Part shown: positions 16,812 through 35,686 of the stretch, piece after piece
How the letters are laid out: every line of letters starts with the position of its first letter
How positions within the stretch are numbered: position 1 is the stretch's first letter
DNA from: a virus
Taxonomy: Duplodnaviria > Heunggongvirae > Uroviricota > Caudoviricetes
Direction: 5' to 3' (one strand)
Length of the DNA: 36,682 nucleotides
IMG/VR virus record: IMGVR_UViG_2545824713_000010
Notes under the pieces: generated by a model
Seen by the model: the letters and a program-made list of their open reading frames with translations, nothing else
What the model was told of the DNA's origin: nothing
Database searches by the model: none
Made by a program: the position numbers and the translations under genes

Positions 16812-17135
16812 GTGAGCACCATTCAAACAGGGATCACAGAGCAGGTTATTGCGTGGCTCTTTGACCACCTGCCAACGGTGTATGCAGTAGGCGCGGCGGT
16901 CAGCATTTCCGCGCTGATGAGTCTTTATGACGGACGAACACTGGTTCAGACCGTAACGGGATCGCTGGCGTGCGGCGTTCTGGCCATGGCCGTGGCCGGG
17001 TCGTTGCGCTTCTTCGGTTTTCCTGAAGATGCCGTGACGTTTATCGGCGCATCAATCGGTTTTATGGGCGCAGAGAAAGCACGCGACAAGGTTATTGCAG
17101 CCTTTAATCGCAGGGTGAAGGAGAAGGACGAATGA
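16812..17135 (+). CDS. Holin (P2 gpY position)
   Basis: GTG start after RBS ggggag; about 107 aa with three hydrophobic segments; sits before the endolysin. Confidence 0.6.
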   Translation: MSTIQTGITEQVIAWLFDHLPTVYAVGAAVSISALMSLYDGRTLVQTVTGSLACGVLAMAVAGSLRFFGFPEDAVTFIGASIGFMGAEKARDKVIAAFNRRVKEKDE

Positions 17136-17524
17136 GCAACACATTTAAATTCAGCAGCCGGAGCGAAAAGAATTTGCAGGGCGTAAATCCTGATCTGGTG
17201 AAAGTGACCCGACGGGCACTGGAAATCTCGGAAGTGGATTTTGGTATCACCGAAGGGTTGCGCAGCCGTTACCGCCAGAAGCAACTTGTGGCCACGGGTA
17301 AGAGCCAGACCATGAACAGCCGCCACCTTACGGGGCATGCCGTGGATGTTGTGGCTTATATCGGCAGCCAGGTGTCATGGGAATGGCCACTGTACGAAAA
17401 AATCGCAGCAGCATTCAGACAGGCCAGCCGGGAACTGAATATTCCGGTGGAATGGGGCGGCGACTGGAAGACCCTGAAAGACGGACCGCATTTTCAGTTA
17501 CCACACGGAGCCTATCCGGCATGA
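17132..17524 (+). CDS. Endolysin, peptidase M15-type (L-alanyl-D-glutamate or D-Ala-D-Ala peptidase family)
   Basis: 130 aa; the HLTGHAVDV and WGGDW motifs are typical of zinc M15 peptidases; occupies the P2 K lysozyme slot. Confidence 0.7.
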   Translation: MSNTFKFSSRSEKNLQGVNPDLVKVTRRALEISEVDFGITEGLRSRYRQKQLVATGKSQTMNSRHLTGHAVDVVAYIGSQVSWEWPLYEKIAAAFRQASRELNIPVEWGGDWKTLKDGPHFQLPHGAYPA

Positions 17525-19739: not shown

Positions 19740-20086
19740 CAACCCGCTACACAGGAATGAACCCGGACGGAACGGGAAACCTGAACGATACGGAGCACCT
19801 GAAACAGTCAGTCAGGGACATCCTGACCACCCCGCTGGCCAGCCGGGTTATGCGACGGGAATATGGCAGCCTTGTACCTGATTTGATTGACGAACCCATG
19901 AATAACACCACGCGTCTGCAATGCATGAGTGCTGCCGTGATTGCACTGACACGATGGGAACCCCGCATTGCCCTGGACGCCATCGACGTTGTCTGGAAGG
20001 CAGGAGGCCGCGCCGGGGTGACGCTGTCGGGCACTGTCATGCAGACCATGCAGAATGTTGAATTAACCATCACGCTGAGGGAGTAA
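19736..20086 (+). CDS. W: Baseplate wedge protein, P2 gpW-like
   Basis: 116 aa (P2 W is 115 aa); position after V. Confidence 0.8.
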   Translation: MTTRYTGMNPDGTGNLNDTEHLKQSVRDILTTPLASRVMRREYGSLVPDLIDEPMNNTTRLQCMSAAVIALTRWEPRIALDAIDVVWKAGGRAGVTLSGTVMQTMQNVELTITLRE

Positions 20087-20089
20087 ATC

Positions 20090-20986
20090 ATGCCCGCCGT
20101 TGACCTTTCCCAGTTACCGGAACCCGCCATCATCGCGGAGCCTGACTTTGAAGCAATTCTGGCTGACACAAAAGCCATGATGATTGCGTCCTATCCCGCC
20201 GAACAGCGTGAAGCCGTTTCCGCCGCGCTGGAGCTGGAATCGGAACCCCTGAACGTTATCGCCCAGACAACAGCGTTTCGTGAAATGCTGTTACGCCAGC
20301 GGGTTAACGAGGGCGCACGCGCCTGCATGTTAAGCCACAGCGCCGGGACAGACCTGGACAACCTCGCGGGCAATATGAACACAAAGCGCCTGGTTATCAC
20401 TCCGGCAACGGATACCACCGACGCGGTGATGGAGAGCGACACCTCGCTTAGACTGCGGGCGCAGCGGGCGTACGACGGCCTGAGTGTTGCTGGCCCGTCA
20501 GGTGCATACGAGTATTTTGCCCGCAGCGCCAGCGGTCTGGTGCGTGATGCGCGGGCTATCAGTCCGTCTCCGGCCAATGTGACGGTTTCCATCCTGTCCA
20601 CTGAAGGCGACGGCACAGCAACGGAGGCGTTGCTTAATACCGTTCGCGCCGTTCTGAATGCAGAGGATACCCGCCCGGTGGCCGACCGCCTGACGGTACA
20701 GAGCGCCAGAATCGTGACATGGCGGCTGAATGCAAAACTGTACTTTTACCCCGGCCCGGAATCCGAACCTATTCTGGCCGCAGCTGAATCGTCGTTCAGG
20801 AAGTGGCTGGCTGAGCAGGGGCTTATCGGTCAGGACGTGGCGTTGTCCGCCATTGCTGCCGCACTGCATGTGCACGGTGTGCAACGCGTGGAGATAATCG
20901 AACCCACACAGAATATGGCCATCAGCGACATACAGGCGGCGCGCTGTGAGTCATTCACCATCAGCGAAGGTGGGCGTAATGAGTAA
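20090..20986 (+). CDS. J: Baseplate protein, P2 gpJ-like
   Basis: 298 aa (P2 J is about 302 aa); position. Confidence 0.85.
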   Translation: MPAVDLSQLPEPAIIAEPDFEAILADTKAMMIASYPAEQREAVSAALELESEPLNVIAQTTAFREMLLRQRVNEGARACMLSHSAGTDLDNLAGNMNTKRLVITPATDTTDAVMESDTSLRLRAQRAYDGLSVAGPSGAYEYFARSASGLVRDARAISPSPANVTVSILSTEGDGTATEALLNTVRAVLNAEDTRPVADRLTVQSARIVTWRLNAKLYFYPGPESEPILAAAESSFRKWLAEQGLIGQDVALSAIAAALHVHGVQRVEIIEPTQNMAISDIQAARCESFTISEGGRNE

Positions 20987-21511: not shown

Positions 21512-23794
21512 ATGAGTACCACAACACGAAAATTTAAAACCGTTATCACCGATACGGGTGCAAAAAAATTAGCTCAGGCAGCCGCGCCAGATGGTAAGCC
21601 TGTCCGCCTGACTCATATGGCCGTGGGCGACGGTGGCGGCACGTTGCCCACACCAGACAGTAAGCAGACCCGTCTGGTGCATGAGGTGTGGCGACACACT
21701 GTTAATCGCGTCATCCTGGACGCAACACATCAGAACCGCATTATTGCGGAGCTGGTTATTCCTCCTGAAACGGGCGGATTCTGGATCCGGGAAATTGGTG
21801 TATTTGATGAGCACGGCGATTTAATCGCGGTGGGCAATACTGCCGAAAGTTACAAGCCAGCCGTTGCCGAAGGGTCCGGTCGTGCACAAACGTTTCGCAC
21901 CATTCTGACCGTATCCAGCACTGCCACCGTGGCGCTTACCGTGGATAACACCATGGTGATGGCCACAGTGGATTACGTGGATGACAAACTGAAAGAGCAT
22001 GAACGGTCACGACATCACCCGGACGCCTCGCTGACCGCAAAAGGCTTTGTTCAACTCAGTAGCGCCACTAACAGCGTGTCTGAAACGCAGGCTGCAACGC
22101 CGAAAGCAGTAAAGGCAGCATATGACCTGGCTAATGGCAAATACACCGCACAGGACGCTACCACTGCGCGGAAAGGGATAGTTCAGCTCAGTAGCGCCAC
22201 CAACAGCACGTCTGAAACGCAGGCTGCAACGCCGAAAGCAGTAAAGACCGCGTATGATCTTGCTAACGGTAAATATACTGCGCAGGATGCCAGCACGACG
22301 CGAAAAGGCCTTGTCCAGCTCAGTAGCGCCACCAACAGCACGTCTGAAGCGCAGGCTGCAACGCCGAAAGCAGTAAAGGCCGCGTATGACCTTGCTAGCG
22401 CAAAATATACCGCTCAGGACGCCACGACGACACAAAAAGGGATAGTCCAGCTCAGTAGTGCCACCAACAGCACGTCTGAAACACTGGCCGCGACACCGAA
22501 AGCGGTTAAGGCGGTAATGGATGAAACGAACAAGAAAGCGCCTTTAAACAGTCCTGCGCTGACCGGAACGCCAACAACGCCAACTGCGCCAAAAGGGACT
22601 AATAATACTCAGATCGCAAGCACGGCTTATGTGATGGCCGCGATTGCCGCACTTGTAGACTCGTCGCCTGACGCACTGAATACGCTGAACGAGCTGGCGG
22701 CGGCGCTGGGCAACGACCCGAATTTTGCGACCACCATGACTAAAGCGCTTGCGGGTAAGCAACCGAAAGATGCCACCCTGACGGCGCTGGCCGGGCTTGC
22801 TACTGCGGCAGACAAGTTTCCGTATTTTACGGGGAATGATGTCGCCAGCCTGGCAACTCTGACAAAAGTCGGGCGGGATATTCTTGCGAAATCGACCGTT
22901 GCCGCTGTTATCGAATACCTCGGTTTACAGGAAATGGTAAACAGGGCCAGGAACGCGGTGCAAAAGAATGGCGATACCTTGTCCGGTGGGCTTACTTTTG
23001 CAAACGACTCAATCCTTGCCTGGATTCGAAATACTGACTGGGCAAAGATTGGTTTTAAAAATGATGCTGACAGCGATACTGATTCATTCATGTGGTTTGA
23101 AACAGGCGACAACGGCAATGAATATTTCAAATGGAGAAGCCGCCAGGGCACCACAACAAAAGACCTGATGACGCTGAAATTGAATGCACTAAATATTCTG
23201 GTTAATGCCGTCATTAATGGCAGTCTTGGAGTTGGTACAACGAATGCGTTAGGTGGTAGCTCAATTGTTCTTGGTGATAATGATACCGGATTTAAACAGA
23301 ATGGTGATGGTATTCTGGATGTTTACGCTAATAGTCAGCGAGTATTCCGCTTTCAGAATGGAGTTGCTATTGCTTTTAAAAACATTCAGGCAGGTGATAG
23401 TAAAAAGTTCTCGCTATCCAGCTCCAACACCTCCACAAAGAATGCAACGTTTAATTTATGGGGTGCTTCAACCCGTCCAGTAGTTGCAGAGTTAGGCGAT
23501 GAGGCAGGATGGCATTTCTATAGCCAGCGAAATACAGATAACTCGGTAATATTTTCTGTTAACGGTCAGATACAGCCCAGCAACTGGGGGAATTTTGATT
23601 CACGCTATGTAAAAGATGTTCGCCTGGGTACGCGTGTTGTTCAATTGATGGCGCGTGGTGGTCGTTATGAAAAAGCCGGACACGCAATTACCGGATTAAG
23701 AATCATTGGTGAAGTAGATGGCGATGATGAAGCCATCTTCAGACCAATACAAAAATACATCAATGGCACATGGTATAACGTCGCACAGGTGTAA
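21512..23794 (+). CDS. H: Tail fibre protein, P2 gpH-like, with constant N-terminal part and invertible C-terminal receptor-binding part
   Basis: 760 aa; four tandem 43-aa repeats; crossover site inside the gene at 22908..22933; C-terminus ends INGTWYNVAQV, like the alternative segment. Confidence 0.9.
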   Translation: MSTTTRKFKTVITDTGAKKLAQAAAPDGKPVRLTHMAVGDGGGTLPTPDSKQTRLVHEVWRHTVNRVILDATHQNRIIAELVIPPETGGFWIREIGVFDEHGDLIAVGNTAESYKPAVAEGSGRAQTFRTILTVSSTATVALTVDNTMVMATVDYVDDKLKEHERSRHHPDASLTAKGFVQLSSATNSVSETQAATPKAVKAAYDLANGKYTAQDATTARKGIVQLSSATNSTSETQAATPKAVKTAYDLANGKYTAQDASTTRKGLVQLSSATNSTSEAQAATPKAVKAAYDLASAKYTAQDATTTQKGIVQLSSATNSTSETLAATPKAVKAVMDETNKKAPLNSPALTGTPTTPTAPKGTNNTQIASTAYVMAAIAALVDSSPDALNTLNELAAALGNDPNFATTMTKALAGKQPKDATLTALAGLATAADKFPYFTGNDVASLATLTKVGRDILAKSTVAAVIEYLGLQEMVNRARNAVQKNGDTLSGGLTFANDSILAWIRNTDWAKIGFKNDADSDTDSFMWFETGDNGNEYFKWRSRQGTTTKDLMTLKLNALNILVNAVINGSLGVGTTNALGGSSIVLGDNDTGFKQNGDGILDVYANSQRVFRFQNGVAIAFKNIQAGDSKKFSLSSSNTSTKNATFNLWGASTRPVVAELGDEAGWHFYSQRNTDNSVIFSVNGQIQPSNWGNFDSRYVKDVRLGTRVVQLMARGGRYEKAGHAITGLRIIGEVDGDDEAIFRPIQKYINGTWYNVAQV
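22042..22525 (+). repeat. Four tandem ~129-bp coding repeats (KG.VQLSSATNS.SETQAATPKAVKAAYDLANGKYTAQDA)
   Basis: Repeats start near 22042, 22175, 22304 and 22436; typical phage tail-fibre repeat. Confidence 0.75.
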
Positions 23795-25914: not shown

Positions 25915-26505
25915 GTGCTGATTGGCTATGTAAGGGTATCAACAAATGACCAGAATACAGACCTGCAACGAAACGCTCTTGTTTGTGCAGGATGTGAACA
26001 AATATTTGAAGATAAATTAAGCGGGACAAAGACTGACCGACCGGGATTAAAACGCGCTTTAAAGCGCCTTCAACAAGGTGACACGCTGGTTGTCTGGAAA
26101 CTGGATCGCCTCGGGCGAAGCATGAAACATCTGATTTCTCTCGTCGGGGAACTACGGGAGCGAGGGATTAATTTTCGCAGTCTGACCGACAGCATAGATA
26201 CATCTTCTCCAATGGGGCGTTTTTTCTTCCACGTGATGGGTGCCCTGGCTGAAATGGAACGTGAATTAATTGTTGAACGTACACTGGCCGGACTGGCGGC
26301 AGCGCGCGCACGGGGGCGCACAGGCGGACGTCGACCGAAGCTGACAAAAGAACAGCATGAGCAAATAGCAAGGCTGATTAAAAACGGTCACGACAGAAAA
26401 CAACTGGCAATAATTTACAGCATTGGTATATCGACAATTTATCGTTACCACCCCGCAGGAGAATCAAGTGGAACAATTGAGAAGAGTAAACAAAATAACC
26501 GCTAA
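25915..26505 (+). CDS. Serine DNA invertase, Hin/Gin/Cin/Pin family
   Basis: GTG start gives MLIGYVRVSTNDQNTDLQRNAL, strongly matching e14 Pin / Hin as recalled; catalytic-serine motif VRVST and a C-terminal HTH. Confidence 0.85.
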   Translation: MLIGYVRVSTNDQNTDLQRNALVCAGCEQIFEDKLSGTKTDRPGLKRALKRLQQGDTLVVWKLDRLGRSMKHLISLVGELRERGINFRSLTDSIDTSSPMGRFFFHVMGALAEMERELIVERTLAGLAAARARGRTGGRRPKLTKEQHEQIARLIKNGHDRKQLAIIYSIGISTIYRYHPAGESSGTIEKSKQNNR

Positions 26506-26527
26506 TCTGGCCATTAGCGGTTTTTGT
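26498..26527. terminator. Bidirectional rho-independent terminator between the convergent invertase and U genes (accgctaat ctggcc attagcggt then TTTTT)
   Basis: 9-bp stem overlapping the invertase stop, T-run on the plus strand and A-run upstream for the minus strand. Confidence 0.55.
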
Positions 26528-26533
26528 GTTAAA

Positions 26534-27028
26534 TCAGAACAGCCCTTTAACGGAGCTGGCCGCGCTGTTAAGGGATAATGTGACCTTATCTTTGAAGCCG
26601 GACAGCATATCGCTGAACGATGAGGATTGCAGGCGCTCCCGCAAATCCTCATCACAGCGTTCAAGGGTCAGTGAAAATTCTATTTTTTTCGCCTTACCGT
26701 AGCGATCAAATTCAGAGCGGGTCGTACTCGTTTCGGTCAGGACATACATGCCGTAAATCTGCCCGACGCCATCAATCAGAGGCCAGGGGCGTCCTGTATA
26801 TGCCTGCGTGGTCAGCAGCGACAGCGACACTTCGCCACCTGTAATTTCAGGATAAAGCACGCCTGAAAGCACGATGCGATCATTACCTGCACCGATATAC
26901 TGCCAGCTTGCTGAACGGTTAACGCGTTCATTTTTCACATGCCGCCAGCTTTTGTTTTGCTGTAACTGCTGATGCGGCAGCGTGCGCAACTCAAAAACAA
27001 ACATGCCGTAGATCATCATCATGACCAT
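26534..27028 (-). CDS. U: Tail protein, P2 gpU-like
   Basis: 164 aa; N-terminus resembles P2 U as recalled; position downstream of T on the same strand. Confidence 0.75.
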   Translation of the reverse strand: MVMMMIYGMFVFELRTLPHQQLQQNKSWRHVKNERVNRSASWQYIGAGNDRIVLSGVLYPEITGGEVSLSLLTTQAYTGRPWPLIDGVGQIYGMYVLTETSTTRSEFDRYGKAKKIEFSLTLERCDEDLRERLQSSSFSDMLSGFKDKVTLSLNSAASSVKGLF

Positions 27029-27034
27029 GACTCC

Positions 27035-29878
27035 TCAATCTTTATCGTAAAAACTGCCACGCCCGGCACGGGCGCGCCGTTCCATTTCTGCCCTGACCAT
27101 TTCGCCAACCAGTTTCGCCAGTTCACGGGGATTCTGCGTAACAACGTTATGCAGATGAACATGAATTTCACCGCCAAATCCGGAGGCAACAGGCTCCCGG
27201 TTACGGGAAGTTGCAGGAACTGATGCCACTGGCGATCGTATAGCCTCCGCCACCGGGCGGGAGCTGGCCGCAACAACAGGGACCAGCGCCGGAGGCAGCG
27301 GAGCCGGAACTACGGGGGTGATATTAATTGCGGGGGCAGGCTTACTGACCTGCGGAATCTTCCGCTCCTGCCACTCCCCACGAACGGCAAGTGCGCGGGG
27401 CAGGTTCTTAAAGACAATATCGCCGGGGCCAATACGTTTTTTCGTCTCATCAACCAGCTTACCTGTGTTATCAGCAATTTTGCTGAGCCTGCGTAGCGTA
27501 CCGGTATTGTTGTCTGTGAGCGGTTTGTTGTCTTTGGGTTTATCACCTCCGGAGCCATTTCCATTTTCCACAGGCTTCGGCGGATTGATTTTCGCCAGGT
27601 CCCCCTGAAGCAAGGCAACCTTGTCCTGAAGAATGGCCGCACGCTGTGCGTCTTCGATTTTCTTTCTCGCCCGTTCCGCTTCATCCGGAAGCACTCCGAG
27701 CTTTTCAAGTATCCACGCCAGTGAATCCATCAATGCTTTTGTTGGTGTCAGGACAAGCTCTATCGCTCCACCAAGTACCCTGCCAAATACCTCGCCAGCA
27801 CTGGTACATTTATCCAGCGTTTCCTTGCTGGACTCCATCGGTGACAGCAGCGATTTAAACCAGTTAAACACCTGGCTGATCCCGCTTCCGATTGCGTCAA
27901 AAACAGGACCGAACCGTTCAAAGGTTTCGCGCAACGGAGCCAGCCGTTCCATAATCCCACTGAACACCCCTGCATAAAACGCCTTGATGGGTTCCCAGTA
28001 TTTCCAGATGAGAACCGCCGCAGCCACAAACGCAGCAGCAATCAATCCGACCGGGCTGAACAGCGCCCCGATAGCGCCCCCCAGTAACGAAACGGAACCC
28101 GTCACCATTCCCCATAGTGCTGGCAGGAGCCTGACAGCATTCATTGATCCGGTCAGGAGGGAAAAGCCAAGACGCAGTTTTGCCAGCGGGCCAGCAAGCA
28201 CACCAATAGCCAGCGACAACGAGCCGACCGTTGCAGTCATCGCCAGCAACGCCCCACCTGCAATCAGTAGCTGGCGCGTCAGTGCCGGATGGGCCTGCGC
28301 CAGCGCCGTCACCTTTGATACCACCCGCGTGAGCCACTGCGTGACAGAACGCAGCGGACCGTCAATCAGATCTGCAATGCGGATGCGCAACCCTTCCCAT
28401 GCACTGCCGAGTGATTTCAGATCGCCGTCAAGGTTGTTGGCCATAACCTTTGCCGTGCGTTCAGCCTCACCGCGTGCGCCTTCAAGTTCTTTTCTCAGTT
28501 TAGGTAAGGATCCGTCACCTGCCGCATCAACGAGGGCCATAAATGATGTGAAAGCCTCTTCTCCGGCAATGTCCTTAAAGAACGATACCCGATCAACTTC
28601 TCCGTATTTGCGGGTGGCTTTATAAAGGTCAGTCAGCAGATCTTCCATCGGGCGCATTTTGCCCCCGGCATCCGAGACAGACACGCCCAGCTCTTTCAGC
28701 GCCTCTGCTGCCGCCTTTGGCGGTGATGCCAGACGAGCCAGGCTGGCACGCATTGCCGTCCCGGCATCACTTCCCCTGATACCCATATTCGCCAGCACGC
28801 CCGCCATCGCTGCGGCCTGCTCCAGCGATATTCCCAGCTTACCCGCCACCGGACCTGCATATTTCATGGTTTCGCCCAGTGCGCGAAGGTCAGTGTTGGT
28901 ACGGGTAAACGCTGCAGTGAGTGTGTCACCGACCCGGTCCATCTGGTCAGCAGAAAGGCCGAACTGCGTCAGGATATTTGAGCCAATATCCGCCGTCTCG
29001 CCGAGATCCATACCGCCAGCCGTTGCCATGCTCAACACGCCGGGAAGCGCAGCCTGAATGGCCTGCGGTGTGAAGCCAGCCATTGCAAGAAATGCCTGCC
29101 CACTGGCGGCATCGCCTGCGGTGAACTGCGTTTCAGAGCCAAGTTTTAACGCCTGCTCACGCAGCGCCTTAAACTGCGGGCTGTTCTGGTCGATTCGCGT
29201 CAGCGCCTGAACGCGGGACATCTCTTTCCCGAACCCGATCGCAGGCTGCAAAAAACGCCCGGCAGCATAGCCGCCCGCCGCTGCCGCACCAGTTGCCAGC
29301 GCACCACCTGTTTTCAGTTTTCCCGCGGTTTCCTGCACGCGCGAATACCGCTCACGCGCCCGCGTTACACGCGCAAGCGCCTGCCGTTCGCGTTCAAGCT
29401 GGTTGTTGTACTGTTCGGTGCGTCTGATGGCCTGCTGGATGGTGTTATCGCTGCCTGTCAGGGAAATGCCGTGGCGTTTCAGCTCTCCGCCAAGCTCCCG
29501 CATTTTCTGAATTTCCCGTGTGCGCGATTCATTCAGGCGTTCAAGCCGGGTGCTTAACTGCTGCATCAGCTTTTGTTGTTTTTCGCTGAGCACTGTACCC
29601 GTGCGTTGTAACTGATTAAGGGCGTTAAGCTGGCGTCGCGCTTTCACGATGCCCGCATCCGCTGTACTGACAGCGTCGCGGGCGCGCTCAAATGAACGCG
29701 CCTGACGCTCGAGATTTTTGATCGCCCCCTGCGTTCGCTGGATGGAGTCACCAAACCGCCCCATCAGGCGGCGGGCGTTTTCGGCAGGCCGGGTCAGCCT
29801 GTCAACGGCGCTGAAAGCGACCCGGATATCAAGAGTCTTCATTATCTGCATTCCCGCTGCGAAGTGCCGCCCGCTCAC
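27035..29878 (-). CDS. T: Tail tape measure protein, P2 gpT-like
   Basis: 947 aa; coiled-coil N-terminus, Ala/Gly-rich hydrophobic central region; follows the E/E' chaperone pair. Confidence 0.85.
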   Translation of the reverse strand: MSGRHFAAGMQIMKTLDIRVAFSAVDRLTRPAENARRLMGRFGDSIQRTQGAIKNLERQARSFERARDAVSTADAGIVKARRQLNALNQLQRTGTVLSEKQQKLMQQLSTRLERLNESRTREIQKMRELGGELKRHGISLTGSDNTIQQAIRRTEQYNNQLERERQALARVTRARERYSRVQETAGKLKTGGALATGAAAAGGYAAGRFLQPAIGFGKEMSRVQALTRIDQNSPQFKALREQALKLGSETQFTAGDAASGQAFLAMAGFTPQAIQAALPGVLSMATAGGMDLGETADIGSNILTQFGLSADQMDRVGDTLTAAFTRTNTDLRALGETMKYAGPVAGKLGISLEQAAAMAGVLANMGIRGSDAGTAMRASLARLASPPKAAAEALKELGVSVSDAGGKMRPMEDLLTDLYKATRKYGEVDRVSFFKDIAGEEAFTSFMALVDAAGDGSLPKLRKELEGARGEAERTAKVMANNLDGDLKSLGSAWEGLRIRIADLIDGPLRSVTQWLTRVVSKVTALAQAHPALTRQLLIAGGALLAMTATVGSLSLAIGVLAGPLAKLRLGFSLLTGSMNAVRLLPALWGMVTGSVSLLGGAIGALFSPVGLIAAAFVAAAVLIWKYWEPIKAFYAGVFSGIMERLAPLRETFERFGPVFDAIGSGISQVFNWFKSLLSPMESSKETLDKCTSAGEVFGRVLGGAIELVLTPTKALMDSLAWILEKLGVLPDEAERARKKIEDAQRAAILQDKVALLQGDLAKINPPKPVENGNGSGGDKPKDNKPLTDNNTGTLRRLSKIADNTGKLVDETKKRIGPGDIVFKNLPRALAVRGEWQERKIPQVSKPAPAINITPVVPAPLPPALVPVVAASSRPVAEAIRSPVASVPATSRNREPVASGFGGEIHVHLHNVVTQNPRELAKLVGEMVRAEMERRARAGRGSFYDKD

Positions 29879-30065
29879 GCCAGCTAACCACTTCGCCGGG
29901 CGTCATCATGAAGATTTCGGCGGGCGACCAGTTAAAAATAACGGCAATATCTGCCACAAAGTCTTCTATGTGCTCAAAGCACACAACCGTGATCAGGCTT
30001 CCGTCGCCTGTTCGTTCTTCCCGCCAGAGTCCGCACCGCTCAAAAAATTTACGGCAACCACACAT
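29829..30065 (-). CDS. E' extension reached by programmed -1 frameshift (E+E' product)
   Basis: The -1 frame ORF 29829..30065 overlaps the E 3' end; slippery T TTT TTG on the minus strand at 30041..30047, as in P2 E/E' and the lambda G/GT paradigm. Confidence 0.55.
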   Translation of the reverse strand: MCGCRKFFERCGLWREERTGDGSLITVVCFEHIEDFVADIAVIFNWSPAEIFMMTPGEVVSWRERAALRSGNADNEDS

Positions 30066-30358
30066 AACTGAATAAAGTCACGGGATGCCATTTTTTTGAT
30101 CGTCACTTCATCCAGTCGCGGTGATGTCACGCGTGACAGCAGCGTAAACATGGATTCCGCTTTCAGATTCAGCACATCAGACAGCGACAAATCTCGCAGA
30201 GATCCAGCCTGCTCAATAGCCCCGGTGATCTCCACATACGTGATTTTTTCGCCGCCTCGCTCAATTGGTTGGGTAAGTTTTACGCCACGCTCACTGGTTT
30301 CTTTCACAGTGTCAGTAACTACCGTGTTTTCGGTATCGATGTTTTTCGTCTCTTTCAT
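29993..30358 (-). CDS. E: Tail assembly chaperone, P2 gpE-like (frame 0 product)
   Basis: 121 aa between the tail tube and tape measure genes; contains the slippery T-run. Confidence 0.7.
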   Translation of the reverse strand: MKETKNIDTENTVVTDTVKETSERGVKLTQPIERGGEKITYVEITGAIEQAGSLRDLSLSDVLNLKAESMFTLLSRVTSPRLDEVTIKKMASRDFIQLCVVAVNFLSGADSGGKNEQATEA

Positions 30359-30412
30359 CAGGAAACTCCTTTCAGTCAGAGGCGACGCACTGCGCCGCCT
30401 GCATATTACTTA

Positions 30413-30925
30413 TCAGCCAAGCCCAAGCGCGGAACGGATGCGATCGGGCACAATGTCCTTGCCGTCCTTCCGGTAAATGAAGTTCAGCAGGTCAATCTCC
30501 CACAACGGGCGATCGTTAACGCTCAGCTTGTAGTAGGTGTTTTTAATGGCGTAAGTGTGTGATGTGGCTTCGCCCTGTTTGGCTTCCCCCATATCAATTT
30601 CCGTCACACGTCCGCGCATTTCGACTTCATACAGGTCGCTTTCTGCATCGGTGTAGTATTCACCCGCAAAACGCAGCAGCGTGCCGTCAATCGTGCCGCC
30701 ATACTTAAGGAACAGCTCACGAACTGCGCCCCCCATGACAAAGCTCGCATCAAGCGCGGAGTCGTCCAGACCGAGATCAATACTTACCGCCCCCATCATG
30801 CCACCACCCCGGTAGCTGTCGGTTTTGCGCGTCAGTTTGGGCAGAGTGACGGACGTCACCTTACCCACTTCGTTTTCACCATCCACAAACAGCGTAAAAA
30901 AGCGAAGATGTTTTGGCACAGCCAT
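30413..30925 (-). CDS. FII: Tail tube protein, P2 gpFII-like
   Basis: 170 aa (P2 FII is about 172 aa); immediately downstream of the sheath gene. Confidence 0.85.
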   Translation of the reverse strand: MAVPKHLRFFTLFVDGENEVGKVTSVTLPKLTRKTDSYRGGGMMGAVSIDLGLDDSALDASFVMGGAVRELFLKYGGTIDGTLLRFAGEYYTDAESDLYEVEMRGRVTEIDMGEAKQGEATSHTYAIKNTYYKLSVNDRPLWEIDLLNFIYRKDGKDIVPDRIRSALGLG

Positions 30926-32109
30926 CAGGCACCTCCCAGCACCGCAAATGCGGGTTCAAAGTATTCATCAGTAAACGTCTGGTAAAGCTCCATATCTTCC
31001 AGCGGGGGAACAGGCGTATATTTGTAGCGAATACGCACACGCCCCTGACGTAAATCCGTGGTGCTGTTATCCACCACGTCATACCAGCACTCCGCGCCAA
31101 TCAGTTTCCCGGCAGTCACCAGTGAATCCAGTTTTGCCCTGATGGCGCTGATAACATCCTTCACGTTCGCAGGCGTCAGTGGACTGTCGATGGTTTCAAA
31201 CTGCGCTTCCGCAATTGAATCAGCCAGCACCTGTGCGGTTCGGGTATACACCTCAAAGATGTAGGCGTTCGTTTCCGGTGTGCGGTTGCCCCAGAAGCGG
31301 AACCCGTTGCGACGAATAATGGTCGTGATTTCTTTGTTATTGAGGCTGTTGGCATCACTGTCTTCGGCCTGCAACGACCAGAACACATGCCTCGACATCC
31401 CCAGCACATTTTTAACCGGAACGTTGGACAGCGATTTGTGCCAGCCCTGCTCATGGTCAATGTACGCACGAAGGCCGCACGCATAAGCAGGAGCGGGGAA
31501 CGTTTCGTTTTTGCCACTTTTCGGGTTGTAGGCGATGAAGTCCGGCCATAAGAGCATCACCTCACGTTCGTTGAATTTCTGGCGGTAGGTAATTGCCTCA
31601 GCCATCGTGTTACAGTCATGACATGAGGCATACACAAACGCGCGCAGTTTACCCGCAATCACGCACAGGGATTTTGTCACCGCCTCCGTGTCCAGCTCCG
31701 GCGCGGCCAGAATACGCGGACGGTATCCGATGCTTTCATCCTGCTCTGCAACAAGCAGCGCATACATCCCCGTATAGCTGCCGTCAGATTCAGAACCACC
31801 GATAACCAGTTGATCCTGCGTCTTACCGCCTTCTTCTTTGTGTTCAGCCACGCGAACGACGATCACCTTTGTGCTCACCTGGTCTGCGATGGCCTTAAGC
31901 GCACGATAAAGCGTCCCCGTTGTCCCGCATTTTCCCAGCACGTCATTGACGCGGGTCAGCAATGTGGGCTTGTTCAGCGGGAACAGCTTCGCGTCCGCAT
32001 CATCCGCCGTTGCCACGATACCGATAACACTGGAATCAACATCATTAATCGCTGTTACCAGGTCGGTATTTTCCGTAACACGGGCACCATGAAAACGAGT
32101 TTCACTCAT
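30925..32109 (-). CDS. FI: Contractile tail sheath protein, P2 gpFI-like
   Basis: 394 aa; FPLNKP, LRAF.Y, WPDF, EQGWHK.LSNV, IRR.GFRFWGNRT and YTPVPPLE match P2 FI as recalled. Confidence 0.9.
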   Translation of the reverse strand: MSETRFHGARVTENTDLVTAINDVDSSVIGIVATADDADAKLFPLNKPTLLTRVNDVLGKCGTTGTLYRALKAIADQVSTKVIVVRVAEHKEEGGKTQDQLVIGGSESDGSYTGMYALLVAEQDESIGYRPRILAAPELDTEAVTKSLCVIAGKLRAFVYASCHDCNTMAEAITYRQKFNEREVMLLWPDFIAYNPKSGKNETFPAPAYACGLRAYIDHEQGWHKSLSNVPVKNVLGMSRHVFWSLQAEDSDANSLNNKEITTIIRRNGFRFWGNRTPETNAYIFEVYTRTAQVLADSIAEAQFETIDSPLTPANVKDVISAIRAKLDSLVTAGKLIGAECWYDVVDNSTTDLRQGRVRIRYKYTPVPPLEDMELYQTFTDEYFEPAFAVLGGA

Positions 32110-32266: not shown

Positions 32267-33376
32267 ATGACCGACACCACCATGCAATTGCTCAGTCAGA
32301 GCACAGACCCCGTGAAAATGCCGGATTTTGATATTCTCGCGGAGGGGGAAACGCTGTCCGGCGTGGCAGAGCGCCTGATGAGTCTGTCACTGACCGACAA
32401 CCGGGGATTTGAAGCGGACCAGCTCACCATCACGCTGGATGATGCGGATGGTCAGTTGCAGCTACCGCCACGGGGCGCGCGCCTGACGGTTCTCATTGGC
32501 TGGAAAGGAGAACCGCTGACAGAAAAAGGCACTTACATTGTTGATGAAATCGCTCACGAAGGACCGCCGGACAGGCTGACGGTTTCAGCCAGAAGCGCAG
32601 ATTTTCGGGGTGAATTTAACGTTAAACGTGAGGTGTCCTGGCATGATGTGACCGTTGAGCGAGTGGTATCCGCCATCGCTCATCGGTACGGTCTGAAACC
32701 GCAAATCAGCGAAATGCTGATGGATATCGAAATCGACCACGCCGACCAGACCGAAGAAAGTGACATGTCCTTCCTTACGCGCATGGCGGAAATGCTGGGC
32801 GCAATCACCACGGTAAAAAGCGGTAATCTGTTATTCATCATGCCCGGCGGTGGCGTGAACGCACAGGGCCAGCCGTTGCCATCGTTCGCCATCACACGCA
32901 GCAGCGGCGATCGCCATCAGTTTCGCATTGCTGACCGCGAGGCGTATACGGGGGTACGCGCTTACTGGCTTGATCTTAATTACGGGAAAAAGAAAAAAGT
33001 CAGCGTGAAACGCCGCAAACCGCCAAAACCCAAAAAGGAGAAAAGCAGCAGCCGTGAAGGTGATTATATGGAAGGCGCAGAAGGCAATGTGTTTGTGTTA
33101 CGCAAGACTTATCAGAACGAGCAGGCAGCAAGACGCGCAGCAGCGGCAAAATGGCAGCAGCTACAACGCGGAGCCGCATCATTCTCCATCACGCTGGCGC
33201 GTGGACGCGCAGAACTCTATCCCGAAATGCATGGCACGGTGAAAGGCTTCAAAAGTGACATCGACAATCAGGACTGGATTATTGCAAAAGCTGAGCACAC
33301 CATTGATAACAGCGGCTTTACCACACAGCTTGAGCTTGAGGCAAAAATCCCGGAATGGATAGCGGAAACAGAGTGA
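32267..33376 (+). CDS. D: Tail protein D (late control gene D family)
   Basis: ORF 32246..33376; the ATG at 32267 has RBS gggaggg; about 369 aa. Confidence 0.85.
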   Translation: MTDTTMQLLSQSTDPVKMPDFDILAEGETLSGVAERLMSLSLTDNRGFEADQLTITLDDADGQLQLPPRGARLTVLIGWKGEPLTEKGTYIVDEIAHEGPPDRLTVSARSADFRGEFNVKREVSWHDVTVERVVSAIAHRYGLKPQISEMLMDIEIDHADQTEESDMSFLTRMAEMLGAITTVKSGNLLFIMPGGGVNAQGQPLPSFAITRSSGDRHQFRIADREAYTGVRAYWLDLNYGKKKKVSVKRRKPPKPKKEKSSSREGDYMEGAEGNVFVLRKTYQNEQAARRAAAAKWQQLQRGAASFSITLARGRAELYPEMHGTVKGFKSDIDNQDWIIAKAEHTIDNSGFTTQLELEAKIPEWIAETE

Positions 33377-33679: not shown

Positions 33680-33767
33680 CAGGCAGAATTGCCGGAGTAA
33701 CAAAAAAGCGATAGATTACGTGCGGGTGCCTTTCGGCTGATGGTCGGAGGGAATACCCGAAGGCCAG

Positions 33768-33953
33768 ATGTGGAAAGGCCCCGAGTCAACTTTAACGTTA
33801 ACCCGAGGCCCTAACCATCTACCCTTAGCAAGTGATAGGTTAGCGCCTCCCCGAAAAAGGAGCAAGCGCTATGTCGCAAAAATCGCTTACGGCCATCACG
33901 TTCTGCGTGACGGCAATCCTCATCATCTGGATGCTGCACGGTTCGCTGTGTGA
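33768..33953 (+). CDS. Possible mok-like overlapping reading frame of the hok-like locus
   Basis: 61-aa ORF in a different frame that overlaps the hok-like start, the arrangement seen for mok/hok; weak evidence. Confidence 0.3.
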   Translation: MWKGPESTLTLTRGPNHLPLASDRLAPPRKRSKRYVAKIAYGHHVLRDGNPHHLDAARFAV

Positions 33954-34011
33954 AATACGGATGAGCTTCTGGGGAGCGGAGTTTGCGGCGTTCTTACAGT
34001 GTAAGCAGTAA
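33871..34011 (+). CDS. Hok/Gef-family type I toxin-like small membrane protein (46 aa)
   Basis: MSQKSLTAITFCVTAILIIWMLHGSLCEIRMSFWGAEFAAFLQCKQ: a hydrophobic helix then SLCEIR and EFAAF, matching Hok (KSLCEIR...EVAAF) as recalled; RBS aaggag; below the ORF-track cutoff. Confidence 0.6.
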   Translation: MSQKSLTAITFCVTAILIIWMLHGSLCEIRMSFWGAEFAAFLQCKQ

Positions 34012-34020
34012 GGAAACCGC

Positions 34021-34042
34021 GACGGGGGAGTAATCCCCCGTC
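34021..34042 (+). terminator. Stable hairpin after the hok-like stop (gacggggga gtaa tcccccgtc)
   Basis: Perfect 9-bp GC stem immediately 3' of the toxin ORF; no clear U-tract. Confidence 0.4.
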
Positions 34043-34188
34043 AATCAGTTGCCGGGATAAGGTCGATAAGGCATCCTGTCTCACTCTATACCAGCTAATC
34101 AATTGACACATATCAATAAAAAGCCTGATAAAATCAAAATATTTTGTTACAAATGTCAGCTAGTAGAGGGCCAAAGGAGGCAGATTAT

Positions 34189-34521
34189 ATGGCATTAATC
34201 AAATGTCCTGAATGCCAGAAAGAGGTGATCGATTCAGTATTGTCTTGCCCTGCTTGTGGCAAACAACTGAAAAATCTTAAACGCTCATTTTTTGGAGAAC
34301 TCATTAAGTGTTTTTTTATATTATTTAATATTTTTATAATCTACACGATTTGTATTGGGCTAAGAGAGGTGGGTGAAATAATAAACAACGCCACATCCGA
34401 TGTCGAAAAAGCCGGTACAGTTATTGGTACGGGCTTAGGTTTAATTGCTATTGGAGGCTTATGGGTTATTGGCAATATCATTATCGGAAATTTAGTATTT
34501 CTTACTAAACCAAAGGGATAA
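34189..34521 (+). CDS. Zinc-ribbon membrane protein (CPEC...CPAC then two TM segments)
   Basis: ATG with RBS aaggagg; AT-rich gene; the N-terminal C-x2-C-x13-C-x2-C is followed by hydrophobic and Gly-rich helices. Confidence 0.55.
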   Translation: MALIKCPECQKEVIDSVLSCPACGKQLKNLKRSFFGELIKCFFILFNIFIIYTICIGLREVGEIINNATSDVEKAGTVIGTGLGLIAIGGLWVIGNIIIGNLVFLTKPKG

Positions 34522-34525
34522 CAAA

Positions 34526-35419
34526 ATGAAAAATGTGATTATTTCTATAGGCGCATCATTTATATCAATTAGTGTGCTACCTGCTCACGCAGCAACTGAG
34601 CATAATAACTTTAAGTCATCACTCCAGTGCCGAGCAATAGAAAATAATAAAGAAAGACTTTCTTGTTATGATAAGTCAATACAACCGACTCGAACGACAG
34701 TTGCTGAAAAATTCGAAAGCAGAGATCAATGCCCTGATGAGAAAGATGATGACAGACGTTTATCTTGTTATGACCGTTTTTTTTCTCCAACATTTACTCC
34801 GCCTGTAAGCTCAAAATCTAAAGTGAAACAGCTAGTAACAACAGAGACTCAGCAACCAAATCTTTCTGAGATATCTAAATGTCGAGCAGAAAACGATAAA
34901 GAAACTAGAGTAAACTGCTACGATAAACTATTTTCACAGGAAAAAGCTACGCAATCTAAATCAAAATTAGAGAAAGCCACAGACTCAGGAAAATGGCACA
35001 CATCCATTACTACATCGCCAATTGATGATTCGAAAAATGTAATTTTATCGTTAGAAAGTGATGATTATATAAGAACTCCATTTGGAGAAGCGGTTACCCC
35101 TACTCTGTTTATAGCTTGCCGAGAAAAGAAAACCGAAGTATTTCTTAATTGGGATGTATATTTAGGCCTTGAACAAACCAGCATGCTGTATCGCCTTGAT
35201 AAACAGAAAGCAGTTGAGCGAAACTGGCTAGTATCTACAGATACAAAGGCTGTTTTTTATAAAGGCAATGACATTAACTTCATCAGAAAACTAGCCAACT
35301 CAAACAAAATGTATGCAAGAATAACCCCTTATAATGAAAGCCCTGTAAGTGCAACTTTCAATTTAAACGGCCTGTCAACCACGCTAAAACCGCTTCAAGA
35401 AGCCTGTAACTGGAAATAG
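34526..35419 (+). CDS. Secreted/periplasmic protein with three Cys-pair repeats (C-x9-11-R/V-x-CYD)
   Basis: N-terminal signal peptide ending AHA-ATE; repeats LQCRAIENNKERLSCYDK, QCPDEKDDDRRLSCYDR and KCRAENDKETRVNCYDK; AT-rich. Confidence 0.6.
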   Translation: MKNVIISIGASFISISVLPAHAATEHNNFKSSLQCRAIENNKERLSCYDKSIQPTRTTVAEKFESRDQCPDEKDDDRRLSCYDRFFSPTFTPPVSSKSKVKQLVTTETQQPNLSEISKCRAENDKETRVNCYDKLFSQEKATQSKSKLEKATDSGKWHTSITTSPIDDSKNVILSLESDDYIRTPFGEAVTPTLFIACREKKTEVFLNWDVYLGLEQTSMLYRLDKQKAVERNWLVSTDTKAVFYKGNDINFIRKLANSNKMYARITPYNESPVSATFNLNGLSTTLKPLQEACNWK

Positions 35420-35519: not shown

Positions 35520-35686
35520 TGCGCCGATACAAATCCTTTTATATCAAAAAGTTAAATCAACATCTTTTTCATCAACAAGGATTTTCACGTTTGTGTTACC
35601 TGTATGAGACGAGAGTTAACCGGACAAGTGTGCCATAATCTCGCGGCCAGGCATACTTGCGAAGATTTCAGGTATAAGGATACGTA

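Follow-up and report, generated by a model that had tools for sequence, protein, structure and literature searches.

Among type I toxin-antitoxin systems the paradigm is hok/sok (parB) of plasmid R1, in which the SD of mok, GAGG, is at +104-107 and the mok AUG at +116-118, i.e. 9 nt after the GAGG; 3' truncation of the R1 mRNA is followed by tac/ucb refolding, and the truncated mRNA becomes less stable when its last 3' stem-loop is mutated (PMC9841398). A prophage-borne hok/sok is also known, hokW-sokW of the Stx2 prophage Sp5/933W, which is experimentally a type I TA dependent on RNase III and Hfq and whose sokW promoter has been shown by mutation to be functional (Takada et al. 2021, PMC8621323). 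3' processing, RNase III cleavage and differential RNA stability have been shown for R1 and hokW (PMC8621323; PMC9841398). The closest match to the locus considered here is in the catalogue of Escalera-Maurer et al. (bioRxiv 10.1101/2025.08.07.668861, a 2025-26 preprint), whose cluster 72 (peptides 72_1621 and 72_1589) includes an identical protein. The preprint deliberately leaves out mok, Sok and mRNA structure, and does not describe the RNA anatomy presented below.

The locus lies in a window of 36,682 nt, this being the whole stretch of viral DNA analysed, from whose first letter all positions are counted. It is very probably a hok/sok-family type I toxin-antitoxin cassette, complete and ~390 bp long (33689-34076), with a Hok of '60% cluster 72' (Escalera-Maurer et al.) and PHROG 251, lying as a moron immediately behind ogr in a P88-like prophage (Xuanwuvirus, P2-family) that is integrated between pdxB and flk in E. 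coli. The cassette runs from the promoter -35 to just past the 3' fold-back element; the initial annotation, which had placed the locus at 33700-34045, captured its core and missed both edges of the slightly larger unit. Its placement of a type I toxin locus between ogr and attR was borne out, with a Hok family gene in the cargo region and a candidate attR downstream (Table 1). The att core was found by comparison with integrase-side sequence beyond the window; no direct repeats serving as att sites were found within the window, because attL falls outside it. The endolysin of the prophage is flagged as frameshifted in RefSeq and part of the tail block is on the opposite strand, and the prophage may be rearranged or defective.

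Similar DNA is present in ~1750 of 5426 complete E. coli genomes, and also in P88-type and Stx phages and some plasmids. The cassette boundaries are kept across unrelated insertion contexts, whether the cassette follows ogr, lom or gpJ or sits in an O157 island, and mark a mobile moron. The P88 locus is 94% identical to the window cassette, and the Stx-phage copies, 82% identical, match window positions 33703-34076 only. Sp5/933W has such a copy of cluster 72, separate from hokW-sokW, unannotated and next to lom (82% DNA and 74% protein identity). hokW-sokW was itself considered as the direct homologue of the window cassette and was rejected, being a distinct locus in the same phage; HokW differs from the window protein in being HokD-like, 51 aa long and accompanied by an in-frame 70-aa MokW, and its locus scores 113 bits in Rfam vs 42.7 for the window. 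The comparisons below use 92 related loci with 43 distinct leaders, and 36 distinct homologues for structure; an alignment search of genome contigs gave 7 loci. The best 80 viral-contig loci, many of which end 3 nt past the stop codon, all encode the identical Hok peptide, and close relatives are accordingly over-represented in this sample.

The amino acid sequence establishes the 46-aa gene as a member of the Hok/Gef family. The hallmarks read in the initial annotation (a hydrophobic helix, SLCEIR and EFAAF) are all present, as is the strong RBS it had noted. The N-terminal half of the peptide is hydrophobic, with a Kyte-Doolittle 17-residue mean of up to 2.44 at residues 6-22, and C12, T14, L26-C27-E28 and E37 align with C16, T18, L30-C31-E32 and E41, the conserved Hok residues given in the preprint (bioRxiv 10.1101/2025.08.07.668861). 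The family profile search that had been suggested was positive, with 29.9 bits for Pfam HOK_GEF PF01848 (gathering score 22; the match spans profile positions 5-42 of 42 with E 4.1e-7) and 80.6 bits for PHROG 251 ('MokW-like host killing', E 1.3e-22). Profile score, a length within ~45-55 aa, hydrophobic helix and conserved residues together place the peptide in PF01848. R1 Hok, of 52 aa, is 39% identical over 31 residues and shares SLCEIR. The best-scoring characterised Hok is K-12 HokA, 43% identical over 47 residues, and HokA is the top model match in NCBIfam, but the peptide reaches 34 bits on the HokA equivalog NF007290 vs a cut-off of 89 and is therefore not a HokA orthologue. PADLOC returned no match for Hok or for the two cargo proteins downstream. 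The description of the ORF as unannotated was mistaken with respect to RefSeq, which names it WP_000078916.1, 'Hok/Gef family protein', in E. coli NZ_CP097001 (100% identical to window 33680-34140); some older phage records do lack the gene.

Toxicity on overexpression, a test proposed in the initial annotation, has in effect been published. Residue for residue the window Hok is homologue 72_1621 of Escalera-Maurer et al., which was cloned (LRP137) for toxicity testing; 42 of the 45 homologues tested are reported as toxic, and the three named exceptions are sequences other than 72_1621 (bioRxiv 10.1101/2025.08.07.668861). This evidence is that of the preprint's text and tables.

Table 1. Positions in the window of the cassette elements and the candidate attachment site.
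Feature	Position	Strand	Description
Predicted hok promoter	33689-33717	+	-35 TTGCCG 33689-33694, 17-nt spacer, -10 TAGATT 33712-33717
Predicted full-length hok mRNA	33724-34076	+	~353 nt; 3' end just past the fold-back element
tac-like 5' element	33724-33738	+	GGGUGCCUUUCGGCU; pairs with 3' fbi in full-length RNA (MFE folds)
61-aa ORF proposed as mok	33768-33953	+	out of frame with hok, which it overlaps; relative frame as for R1 mok
ucb-like box	33771-33781	+	GGAAAGGCCCC; predicted to pair with GAGG(CC) 33805-33810 in the closed form and with tac in the truncated form
Predicted Sok RNA	33772-33829	-	~58 nt: 13-17-nt single-stranded 5' tail, 16-bp hairpin 33812-33775, UUUCC tail
Sok-target region	33805-33843	+	GAGGC 33805-33809 (R1 mok SD equivalent); target hairpin CUAACCAUC...GAUAGGUUAG 33811-33843
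Predicted Sok promoter	33837-33865	-	-35 TTGCTC 33865-33860, 17-nt spacer, -10 TAACCT 33842-33837
hok RBS-sequestering hairpin	33843-33869	+	GCGCCUCC 33843-33850 pairs with GGAG 33859-33862 and GCGC 33866-33869
hok ORF	33871-34011	+	46 aa, MSQKSLTAITFCVTAILIIWMLHGSLCEIRMSFWGAEFAAFLQCKQ; RBS AAGGAG 33857-33862, 8 nt ahead of ATG
3' stem-loop of hok mRNA	34021-34042	+	GACGGGGGA/UCCCCCGUC; 9-bp G+C-rich stem, GUAA loop
fbi-like 3' fold-back	34060-34075	+	GGUCGAUAAGGCAUCC; core GGCAUCC 34069-34075 complementary to 5' GGGUGCC
Candidate attR	35566-35585		20-bp repeat

A generic sigma-70 promoter scan found nothing on either strand of the region, so homology and conservation served instead to place the promoters. 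The predicted hok promoter begins 10 nt past the ogr stop codon and has 8 of 12 consensus matches, the scan cut-off being 9 of 12; the position of TTG-N3-N17-TAnAnT is kept, with a diverging spacer, in 92 loci from unrelated upstream contexts, and it is here that similarity between loci begins. The mRNA would start near 33722-33724, position 1 of the Rfam model RF01794 aligning to 33724, and similarity among the 36 distinct homologues stops after GGCACCC. RF01794, which spans +1 to the hok AUG in hokC, hokW and R1, matches the leader (33724-33884, hok strand) over the full model with 42.7 bits (E 2.9e-8 in a 601-nt search). At its gathering score of 59, Rfam gave no hok or sok match across the whole window, and the lom-adjacent copy of the cluster was likewise missed at the gathering threshold. 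A covariance-model search, as the initial annotation had advised, accordingly returns homology at a sub-threshold score: to judge by this alignment the leader is evidently homologous to RF01794, yet the cluster is outside the curated family boundary. Like R1, the locus has tac/fbi, ucb, GAGG, a target hairpin and a 3' protective hairpin in or around a leader homologous from +1 to the hok AUG, with a predicted Sok promoter at the corresponding position, its spacing likewise 17 nt. It differs from R1 in having a leader ~26 nt shorter (hok AUG at ~+148 vs +174), AUC in place of the mok AUG, an Rfam score below gathering, and a location in a prophage rather than on a plasmid.

Comparison of sequences and modelled folds establishes that the cassette has the architecture of a hok mRNA, with tac/fbi closure, a leader like those of R1, hokC and hokW, a sequestered SD and a 3' hairpin backed by covariation. 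The full-length RNA has a predicted MFE of -151.3 kcal/mol (z = -5.6 vs shuffles). In the RNAalifold consensus built on the 36 distinct homologues the paired share of cells is 97.6%, vs ~40-44% in slid controls, and double-sided changes are seen at 21 pairs vs 2-9 in those controls. The tac-like and fbi-like elements form 15 pairs in the MFE fold, and seven core pairs are in the consensus (99.2% paired in 36 sequences), with changes from G-C to G-U only; as the changes in these pairs are all one-sided, covariation is neither proof nor disproof of tac/fbi. The window departs from the fbi core consensus, GGCACCC, by one C-to-U change, which other loci have too and which yields a G-U pair. At the tac-like element, the 20-mer has one occurrence in the window and none in 100 shuffles. 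The helix of the ucb-like box (helix 5) is 98.6% paired across homologues and mostly invariant, and on the minus strand the same box supplies the predicted Sok hairpin with its 3' arm and U-tract. In the modelled fold of a truncated RNA (33724-34046) the 5' end pairs with the ucb-like box and the GAGGC/GCCUC target hairpin forms. The strong hairpin that the initial annotation saw after the ORF was upheld by the comparison, four pairs of this helix (helix 20) being compensatory (e.g. G-C to A-U in 9 sequences) and 99.1% paired. No T-run comes after it on the + strand, and it lies 340 nt past the ogr stop; by analogy with R1, it probably protects the processed 3' end. The RBS-sequestering hairpin (-10.5 kcal/mol, z = -2.4) has helices, 9 and 10, that are 99.5% and 96.5% paired in the 36 sequences with one-sided changes only. 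For 21 homologues the modelled probability that the hok SD is paired is 0.98 in full-length RNA, 0.90 in truncated RNA and 0.97 with the Sok target blocked.

On the minus strand, sequence comparison shows that a promoter-like site is conserved, and a strong hairpin present, where characterised systems encode Sok. The promoter hexamers at the homologous model positions are TTGCGC-17-TATCCT in R1 and TTGCCT-17-TAACCT in hokW, the latter with the same -10 as the window. TAACCT is kept in 91 of 92 loci (TAATCT in one) and cTTG in 91 of 92 (cTTT in one), and the predicted promoter overlaps the hok SD and start region. The Sok ends were transferred from annotated K-12 sokC (L019:553-611) via Rfam model positions 44-106, giving a predicted start near 33829 (-); the predicted fold is stable (-27.9 kcal/mol, z = -5.1), with a short U-tract of UUU only. 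The Sok-target region was placed by aligning hokC, hokW, R1 and the window to the Rfam model, and the target hairpin taken on its own (-7.5 kcal/mol, z = -0.4) is no more stable than shuffled sequence. The sok-like minus-strand gene anticipated in the initial annotation can be placed by homology, with a terminator-like hairpin; within 33750-33880, where it had suggested looking for a promoter, a predicted one was likewise placed by homology, the generic scan having found none.

By analogy with R1 and hokW, the weak constitutive hok promoter would give a stable ~350-nt mRNA that is translationally inert while both its ends are paired. Slow 3' trimming would then strip fbi, allowing the 5' end to re-pair with ucb and expose the Sok-target hairpin; short-lived Sok of ~58 nt would base-pair with 33772-33829, RNase III would cut the duplex, and hok would stay silent. 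Were the supply of Sok to fail, which may happen on prophage loss, on shut-down of host transcription by an infecting phage, or on prophage induction, Hok would be made, enter the inner membrane and depolarise or kill the cell. On the same analogy the cassette would be likely to stabilise the prophage, exclude phages or bring lysis forward upon induction, and a role for it in addiction or abortive infection is plausible.

With respect to mok the locus departs from R1. The out-of-frame ORF that the initial annotation likened to mok does exist, overlapping hok, but its start is noncanonical and an ORF of this kind is absent from 27 of the 92 loci. It may be that the locus is a canonical three-gene hok/mok/sok, in which the 61-aa ORF is the true mok, translation through the SD hairpin is needed and Sok blocks initiation, a possibility that we regard as somewhat unlikely. 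R1 needs mok translation up to the hok SD, and the 61-aa ORF, in the same relative frame, passes through the sequestered hok SD. Its ATG lies 2-4 nt past where the 3' end of the Sok-complementary stretch is predicted, and a Sok duplex would therefore be inside the footprint of an initiating ribosome. Moreover, pairing of the hok SD does not fall below 90% in any modelled state, and some unfolding activity therefore seems needed. Among the 92 related loci, 65 have some upstream ORF that passes through the hok SD, but with differing starts (ATG at -130 in 43 and at -103 in 12). However, the canonical mok position is 49 nt downstream of the start of the 61-aa ORF and is occupied in the window by AUC (33817-33819), with a frame that closes after three codons, and no R1-type mok frame was found in the Sok-target hairpin ~9 nt past the GAGG. 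Its SD is weak (GAAGG) and is inside a stem of the predicted fold, its product had no match in Pfam and NCBIfam searches, and the start codon in use differs among lineages because of 1-2-nt indels. The 27 loci without such an ORF in any frame (18 of the 43 distinct leaders) include P88 and all Stx-phage copies, and many loci of this kind still encode the identical Hok. To judge by these sequences, the 61-aa ORF is probably not a conserved gene. We tentatively consider, with no greater confidence, that cluster 72 may instead be a mok-independent hok/sok variant, in which the R1-type switch (tac/fbi, tac/ucb, GAGG and target hairpin) is kept and the mok start is lost; the dcb-like GCCUC(C) would double as hok anti-SD, 3' processing would free the SD and Sok would re-sequester it, without a leader peptide. 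A thermodynamic form of this mok-independent switch was examined, and the direction was as predicted in 19 of 21 homologues, but the effect is too small for support. With the canonical mok start missing and the SD at least 90% paired in each modelled state, the model therefore leaves the activation of translation unaccounted for.

The role and origin of the cassette can be read in other ways. It could be a functional cassette that mainly aids host lysis and progeny release on induction, as hokW-sokW does in Sp5, with post-segregational killing or abortive infection secondary; this we hold to be possible though doubtful. In Sp5, mitomycin C induction depletes sokW RNA, HokW is produced RecA-dependently, and deletion of hokW-sokW halves phage release (PMC8621323); hok genes are given as ~four-fold enriched in prophages in the preprint text (bioRxiv 10.1101/2025.08.07.668861), and Sp5 carries the lom-adjacent copy of cluster 72. 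However, hokW belongs to another Hok cluster, the data on a prophage role come from hokW, and, if the present prophage is defective, a release function would be moot in this strain. It is improbable that the cassette is a silent relic with recognisable sequence and no expressible toxin, like most K-12 chromosomal hok loci, of which hokA is disrupted by IS150. Such decay would fit the missing canonical mok, the tightly sequestered hok SD, the C-to-U change in the fbi core and the signs of decay in the surrounding prophage. In contrast, none of the recognisable elements is damaged (the two predicted promoters, tac and ucb, the target hairpin, the SD, the ORF, the 3' hairpin and fbi), IS elements and frameshifts are absent, and the C-to-U change, which other loci share, leaves a G-U pair in place. 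The peptide is also identical to the form common in the sampled phage contigs, as encoded by the best 80 loci, and to one that the preprint's text and tables give as cloned for toxicity testing. That the ORF is a chance one and the hairpin the transcription terminator of ogr has next to no probability. In its favour, small ORFs abound, with 22 of 20 aa or longer in 1.2 kb, and the hairpin is downstream of ogr, but family matches with E values from 4e-7 to 1e-22, a cassette kept in unrelated contexts without ogr, and a hairpin that lacks a T-run and is so distant from the ogr stop all argue against it; the family matches and the conservation of similar DNA refute this reading.

The locus is an already catalogued Hok/Sok-type cassette and ordinary prophage cargo, and its first identification was correct. 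The value beyond correct annotation is small, as RefSeq, Pfam, PHROGs and the published catalogue and toxicity screen already cover the gene and family; the 46-aa gene and the predicted antisense RNA, where unannotated, can be corrected in prophage and phage records. Present in about one third of complete E. coli genomes, cluster 72 is a convenient natural case in which to ask whether mok is truly obligatory in hok/sok.

Protein and RNA evidence together indicate that the window locus is very probably a hok/sok cassette, a type I toxin-antitoxin unit, with the standard mechanism. The 46-aa peptide is strongly hydrophobic in its N-terminal half and matches Pfam HOK_GEF (29.9 bits, gathering score 22, E 4e-7) and PHROG 251 'MokW-like host killing' (80.6 bits), bearing out the Hok-like ORF recognised in the initial annotation; the ribosome-binding site before it and the strong hairpin after it are likewise present. 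It shares 39% identity over 31 residues with Hok of plasmid R1 and 43% with K-12 HokA; in the profile search the HokA equivalog cut-off lay far above its score.

Features of the hok/sok cassette and neighbouring cargo
Feature	Window position	Strand	Basis
Predicted hok promoter, TTGCCG, 17 nt, TAGATT	33689-33694, 33712-33717	+	locus comparison
61-aa ORF, overlaps hok out of frame	33768-33953	+	ORF read from sequence
Predicted Sok RNA, ~58 nt	33829 to 33772	-	sokC ends and fold
Predicted Sok promoter, TTGCTC, 17 nt, TAACCT	33865-33860, 33842-33837	-	conservation, homology
AAGGAG (RBS)	8 nt 5' of hok ATG	+	sequence
hok ORF, 46 aa, MSQKSLTAITFCVTAILIIWMLHGSLCEIRMSFWGAEFAAFLQCKQ	33871-34011	+	ORF read from sequence
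3' hairpin, 9 bp, G+C-rich	34021-34042	+	sequence, fold, consensus
Two cargo genes, hok cassette to attR	34189-35419	+	PHROG, RefSeq

The element had been correctly identified, yet it is an ordinary one, already known and annotated. E. coli NCCP 15734 (NZ_CP097001) is 100% identical to window 33680-34140, and the ORF is annotated there as Hok/Gef family protein WP_000078916.1. Of 5426 complete E. coli genomes, 1750 contain cassette-like DNA, up to nine copies each; it also occurs in phages (198 records) and on 35 plasmids. Among phages, the P2-family Xuanwuviruses, P88 for one, come closest (94-95% identity); further copies lie behind ogr of another P2-like prophage, behind lom, behind gpJ and in an O157 island. 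The copy in Stx phages (933W, VT2-Sakai/Sp5 and others) is 82% identical and aligns only with 33703-34076, which delimits the mobile unit. Near-identical E. coli-type cassettes also occur in assemblies labelled Planococcaceae MAG, Vagococcus sp. and Xanthomonas pisi, most likely reflecting contamination. A recent preprint (Escalera-Maurer et al., bioRxiv 10.1101/2025.08.07.668861) catalogues 32,532 hok loci with a four-fold prophage enrichment; in its Table S2 the identical peptide appears as 72_1621 (high-abundance cluster, cloned as plasmid LRP137) and the Stx-phage variant as 72_1589. According to its text, 42 of 45 cloned homologues are toxic and the three named exceptions are sequences other than 72_1621. 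As the identical peptide was cloned and the exceptions are other sequences, the toxicity test suggested for this ORF has, on the word of this preprint, in effect been reported.

The covariance-model search that had also been suggested gave a full-length alignment to RF01794 (33724-33884, E 2.9e-8), but at 42.7 bits it fell short of the gathering score of 59. RF01794 ('sok', 157 nt) represents the hok-sense leader, +1 through the hok AUG, so a hit shows neither the strand nor the coordinates of the Sok gene; its K-12 match is on the hokC strand, and of the model only positions 44-106 are covered, in antisense, by the annotated 59-nt SokC. Expectation of a minus-strand sok-like RNA is supported in silico, with a Sok promoter-like site kept in all 92 related loci compared. 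At the corresponding model positions R1 has TTGCGC-17-TATCCT and sokW, of the Sp5 locus hokW-sokW, has TTGCCT-17-TAACCT, the latter promoter being functional as judged by mutation (PMC8621323). With ends transferred from sokC via RF01794, the predicted Sok RNA begins with an unpaired 5' tail, followed by a hairpin of 16 bp (-27.9 kcal/mol, z = -5.1) and UUUCC. For the predicted hok promoter, similarity between loci of unrelated contexts begins at TTGCCG, the hexamer cores being kept and the spacer diverging. A generic promoter scan picked up neither promoter.

For the predicted hok mRNA (33724-34080) the fold has z = -5.6, and the 15 nt at its 5' end pair with 34060-34075 in the tac/fbi closure (5' end with 3' fold-back) typical of hok mRNAs. 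The RNAalifold consensus of 36 distinct homologues contains this closure, the leader helices, a hairpin sequestering the hok Shine-Dalgarno sequence (SD), the 3' hairpin and long-range pairs that join the start-codon region to the 3' coding region. In this alignment 97.6% of cells were paired, against 39-44% with slid partners, and 21 pairs had two-sided changes, against 2-9 in slid controls. Most compensatory changes fall in helices of the coding region and in the 3' hairpin; tac/fbi and the helices of the leader hardly vary, and so are conserved yet unproven by covariation. In the fold predicted without the last 34 nt (33724-34046), GGAAAGGCCCC (33771-33781) becomes the partner of the 5' end and a target hairpin closed by GAGGC/GCCUC arises, the same tac/ucb rearrangement (5' end with leader box) as described for R1 (PMC9841398).

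In R1, mok must be translated as far as the hok SD; the mok SD, GAGG, lies at +104-107 and the mok AUG at +116-118 (PMC9841398). An overlapping, out-of-frame 61-aa ORF does exist in the window, as the initial annotation noted in likening it to mok, but it lacks the canonical start and has no counterpart in 27 of the 92 loci. The window retains GAGGC (33805-33809), followed nine nt on by AUC in a frame that is only three codons long; the start of the 61-aa ORF is 49 nt upstream of the canonical position. We surveyed the 92 loci (43 distinct leaders) for ORFs with ATG, GTG or TTG starts reading through the hok SD, and found them in 65, counts that are descriptive because the sample is phylogenetically redundant. 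Their starts vary (-130 ATG in 43 loci; -103 ATG in 12, including the window), and 1-2-nt indels change which is in frame. Where no such ORF exists, as in P88 and all copies from Stx phages, the loop of the target hairpin carries a TAA or TAG in frame. These sequence comparisons lend the mok part of the initial annotation no support: we conclude that the window locus's Hok cluster (cluster 72 of the preprint) does not have a mok-like ORF as a conserved feature, though the 61-aa ORF could be functional in the window's own allele. A mok-independent switch is conceivable, since the GCCUC box can pair with either GAGGC or the hok SD, but the modelled thermodynamic effect is too small to support it: the SD, GGAG (33859-33862), pairs with GCGCCUCC (33843-33850) in a conserved hairpin, and its predicted pairing probability is 0.98 in full-length RNA, 0.90 when truncated and 0.97 when the Sok target is blocked.

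The 36.7 kb of the window make up the right-hand part of a P2-like prophage and do not include its attL or integrase. A direct repeat of 20 bp, TTTTCATCAACAAGGATTTT, occurs without mismatch in the integrase-pdxB spacer and at 35566-35585 (E 5.6e-7); it is likely the att core and, flanking both sides, puts the prophage between pdxB and flk. The cassette does lie between ogr and attR, as first described, together with two more cargo genes encoding a 110-aa zinc-ribbon membrane protein (PHROG 6586) and a 297-aa protein (RefSeq 'T6SS-associated TagO', PHROG 1848), both PHROGs being families of unknown function. Neither protein had a match in PADLOC; the genes may be a moron or defence pair. The prophage itself may be rearranged or defective. 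In the RefSeq annotation of ~26500-32100 and ~17100-17500, a sheath-tube-E-T-U tail block lies on the strand opposite to gpD/ogr and the V-W-J-I-H genes and adjoins a recombinase gene and duplicated tail-fibre cassettes, and the M15 endolysin carries a frameshift flag. A large tail-fibre gene holds a 132-nt unit three times in tandem (22039-22510, 85-86% identity). Close to the replication genes, in the early region, isrK (RF01394, 4079-4153, plus strand, 65.4 bits) is directly followed by C4 antisense RNA (RF01695, 4189-4276, plus strand, 83.5 bits), both above gathering in Rfam, a P1/P7-type c4 immunity-RNA arrangement.

We infer the steps beyond sequence anatomy from R1 (PMC9841398) and hokW-sokW (PMC8621323). 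A closed, stable hok mRNA would be slowly trimmed at its 3' end and refold; labile Sok would capture the open form and RNase III cleave the duplex; once Sok was no longer replenished, Hok would be made and damage the membrane. Sp5 carries two unrelated hok loci (20001-20375 and 32970-33294 of the VT2-Sakai/Sp5 sequence), hokW-sokW and an unannotated cluster-72 copy adjoining lom, so that the published hokW-sokW deletion leaves a second Hok toxin in Sp5. Candidate roles for the cassette would be prophage stabilisation, exclusion of other phages and help with lysis on induction, the last having been shown for hokW-sokW (PMC8621323).
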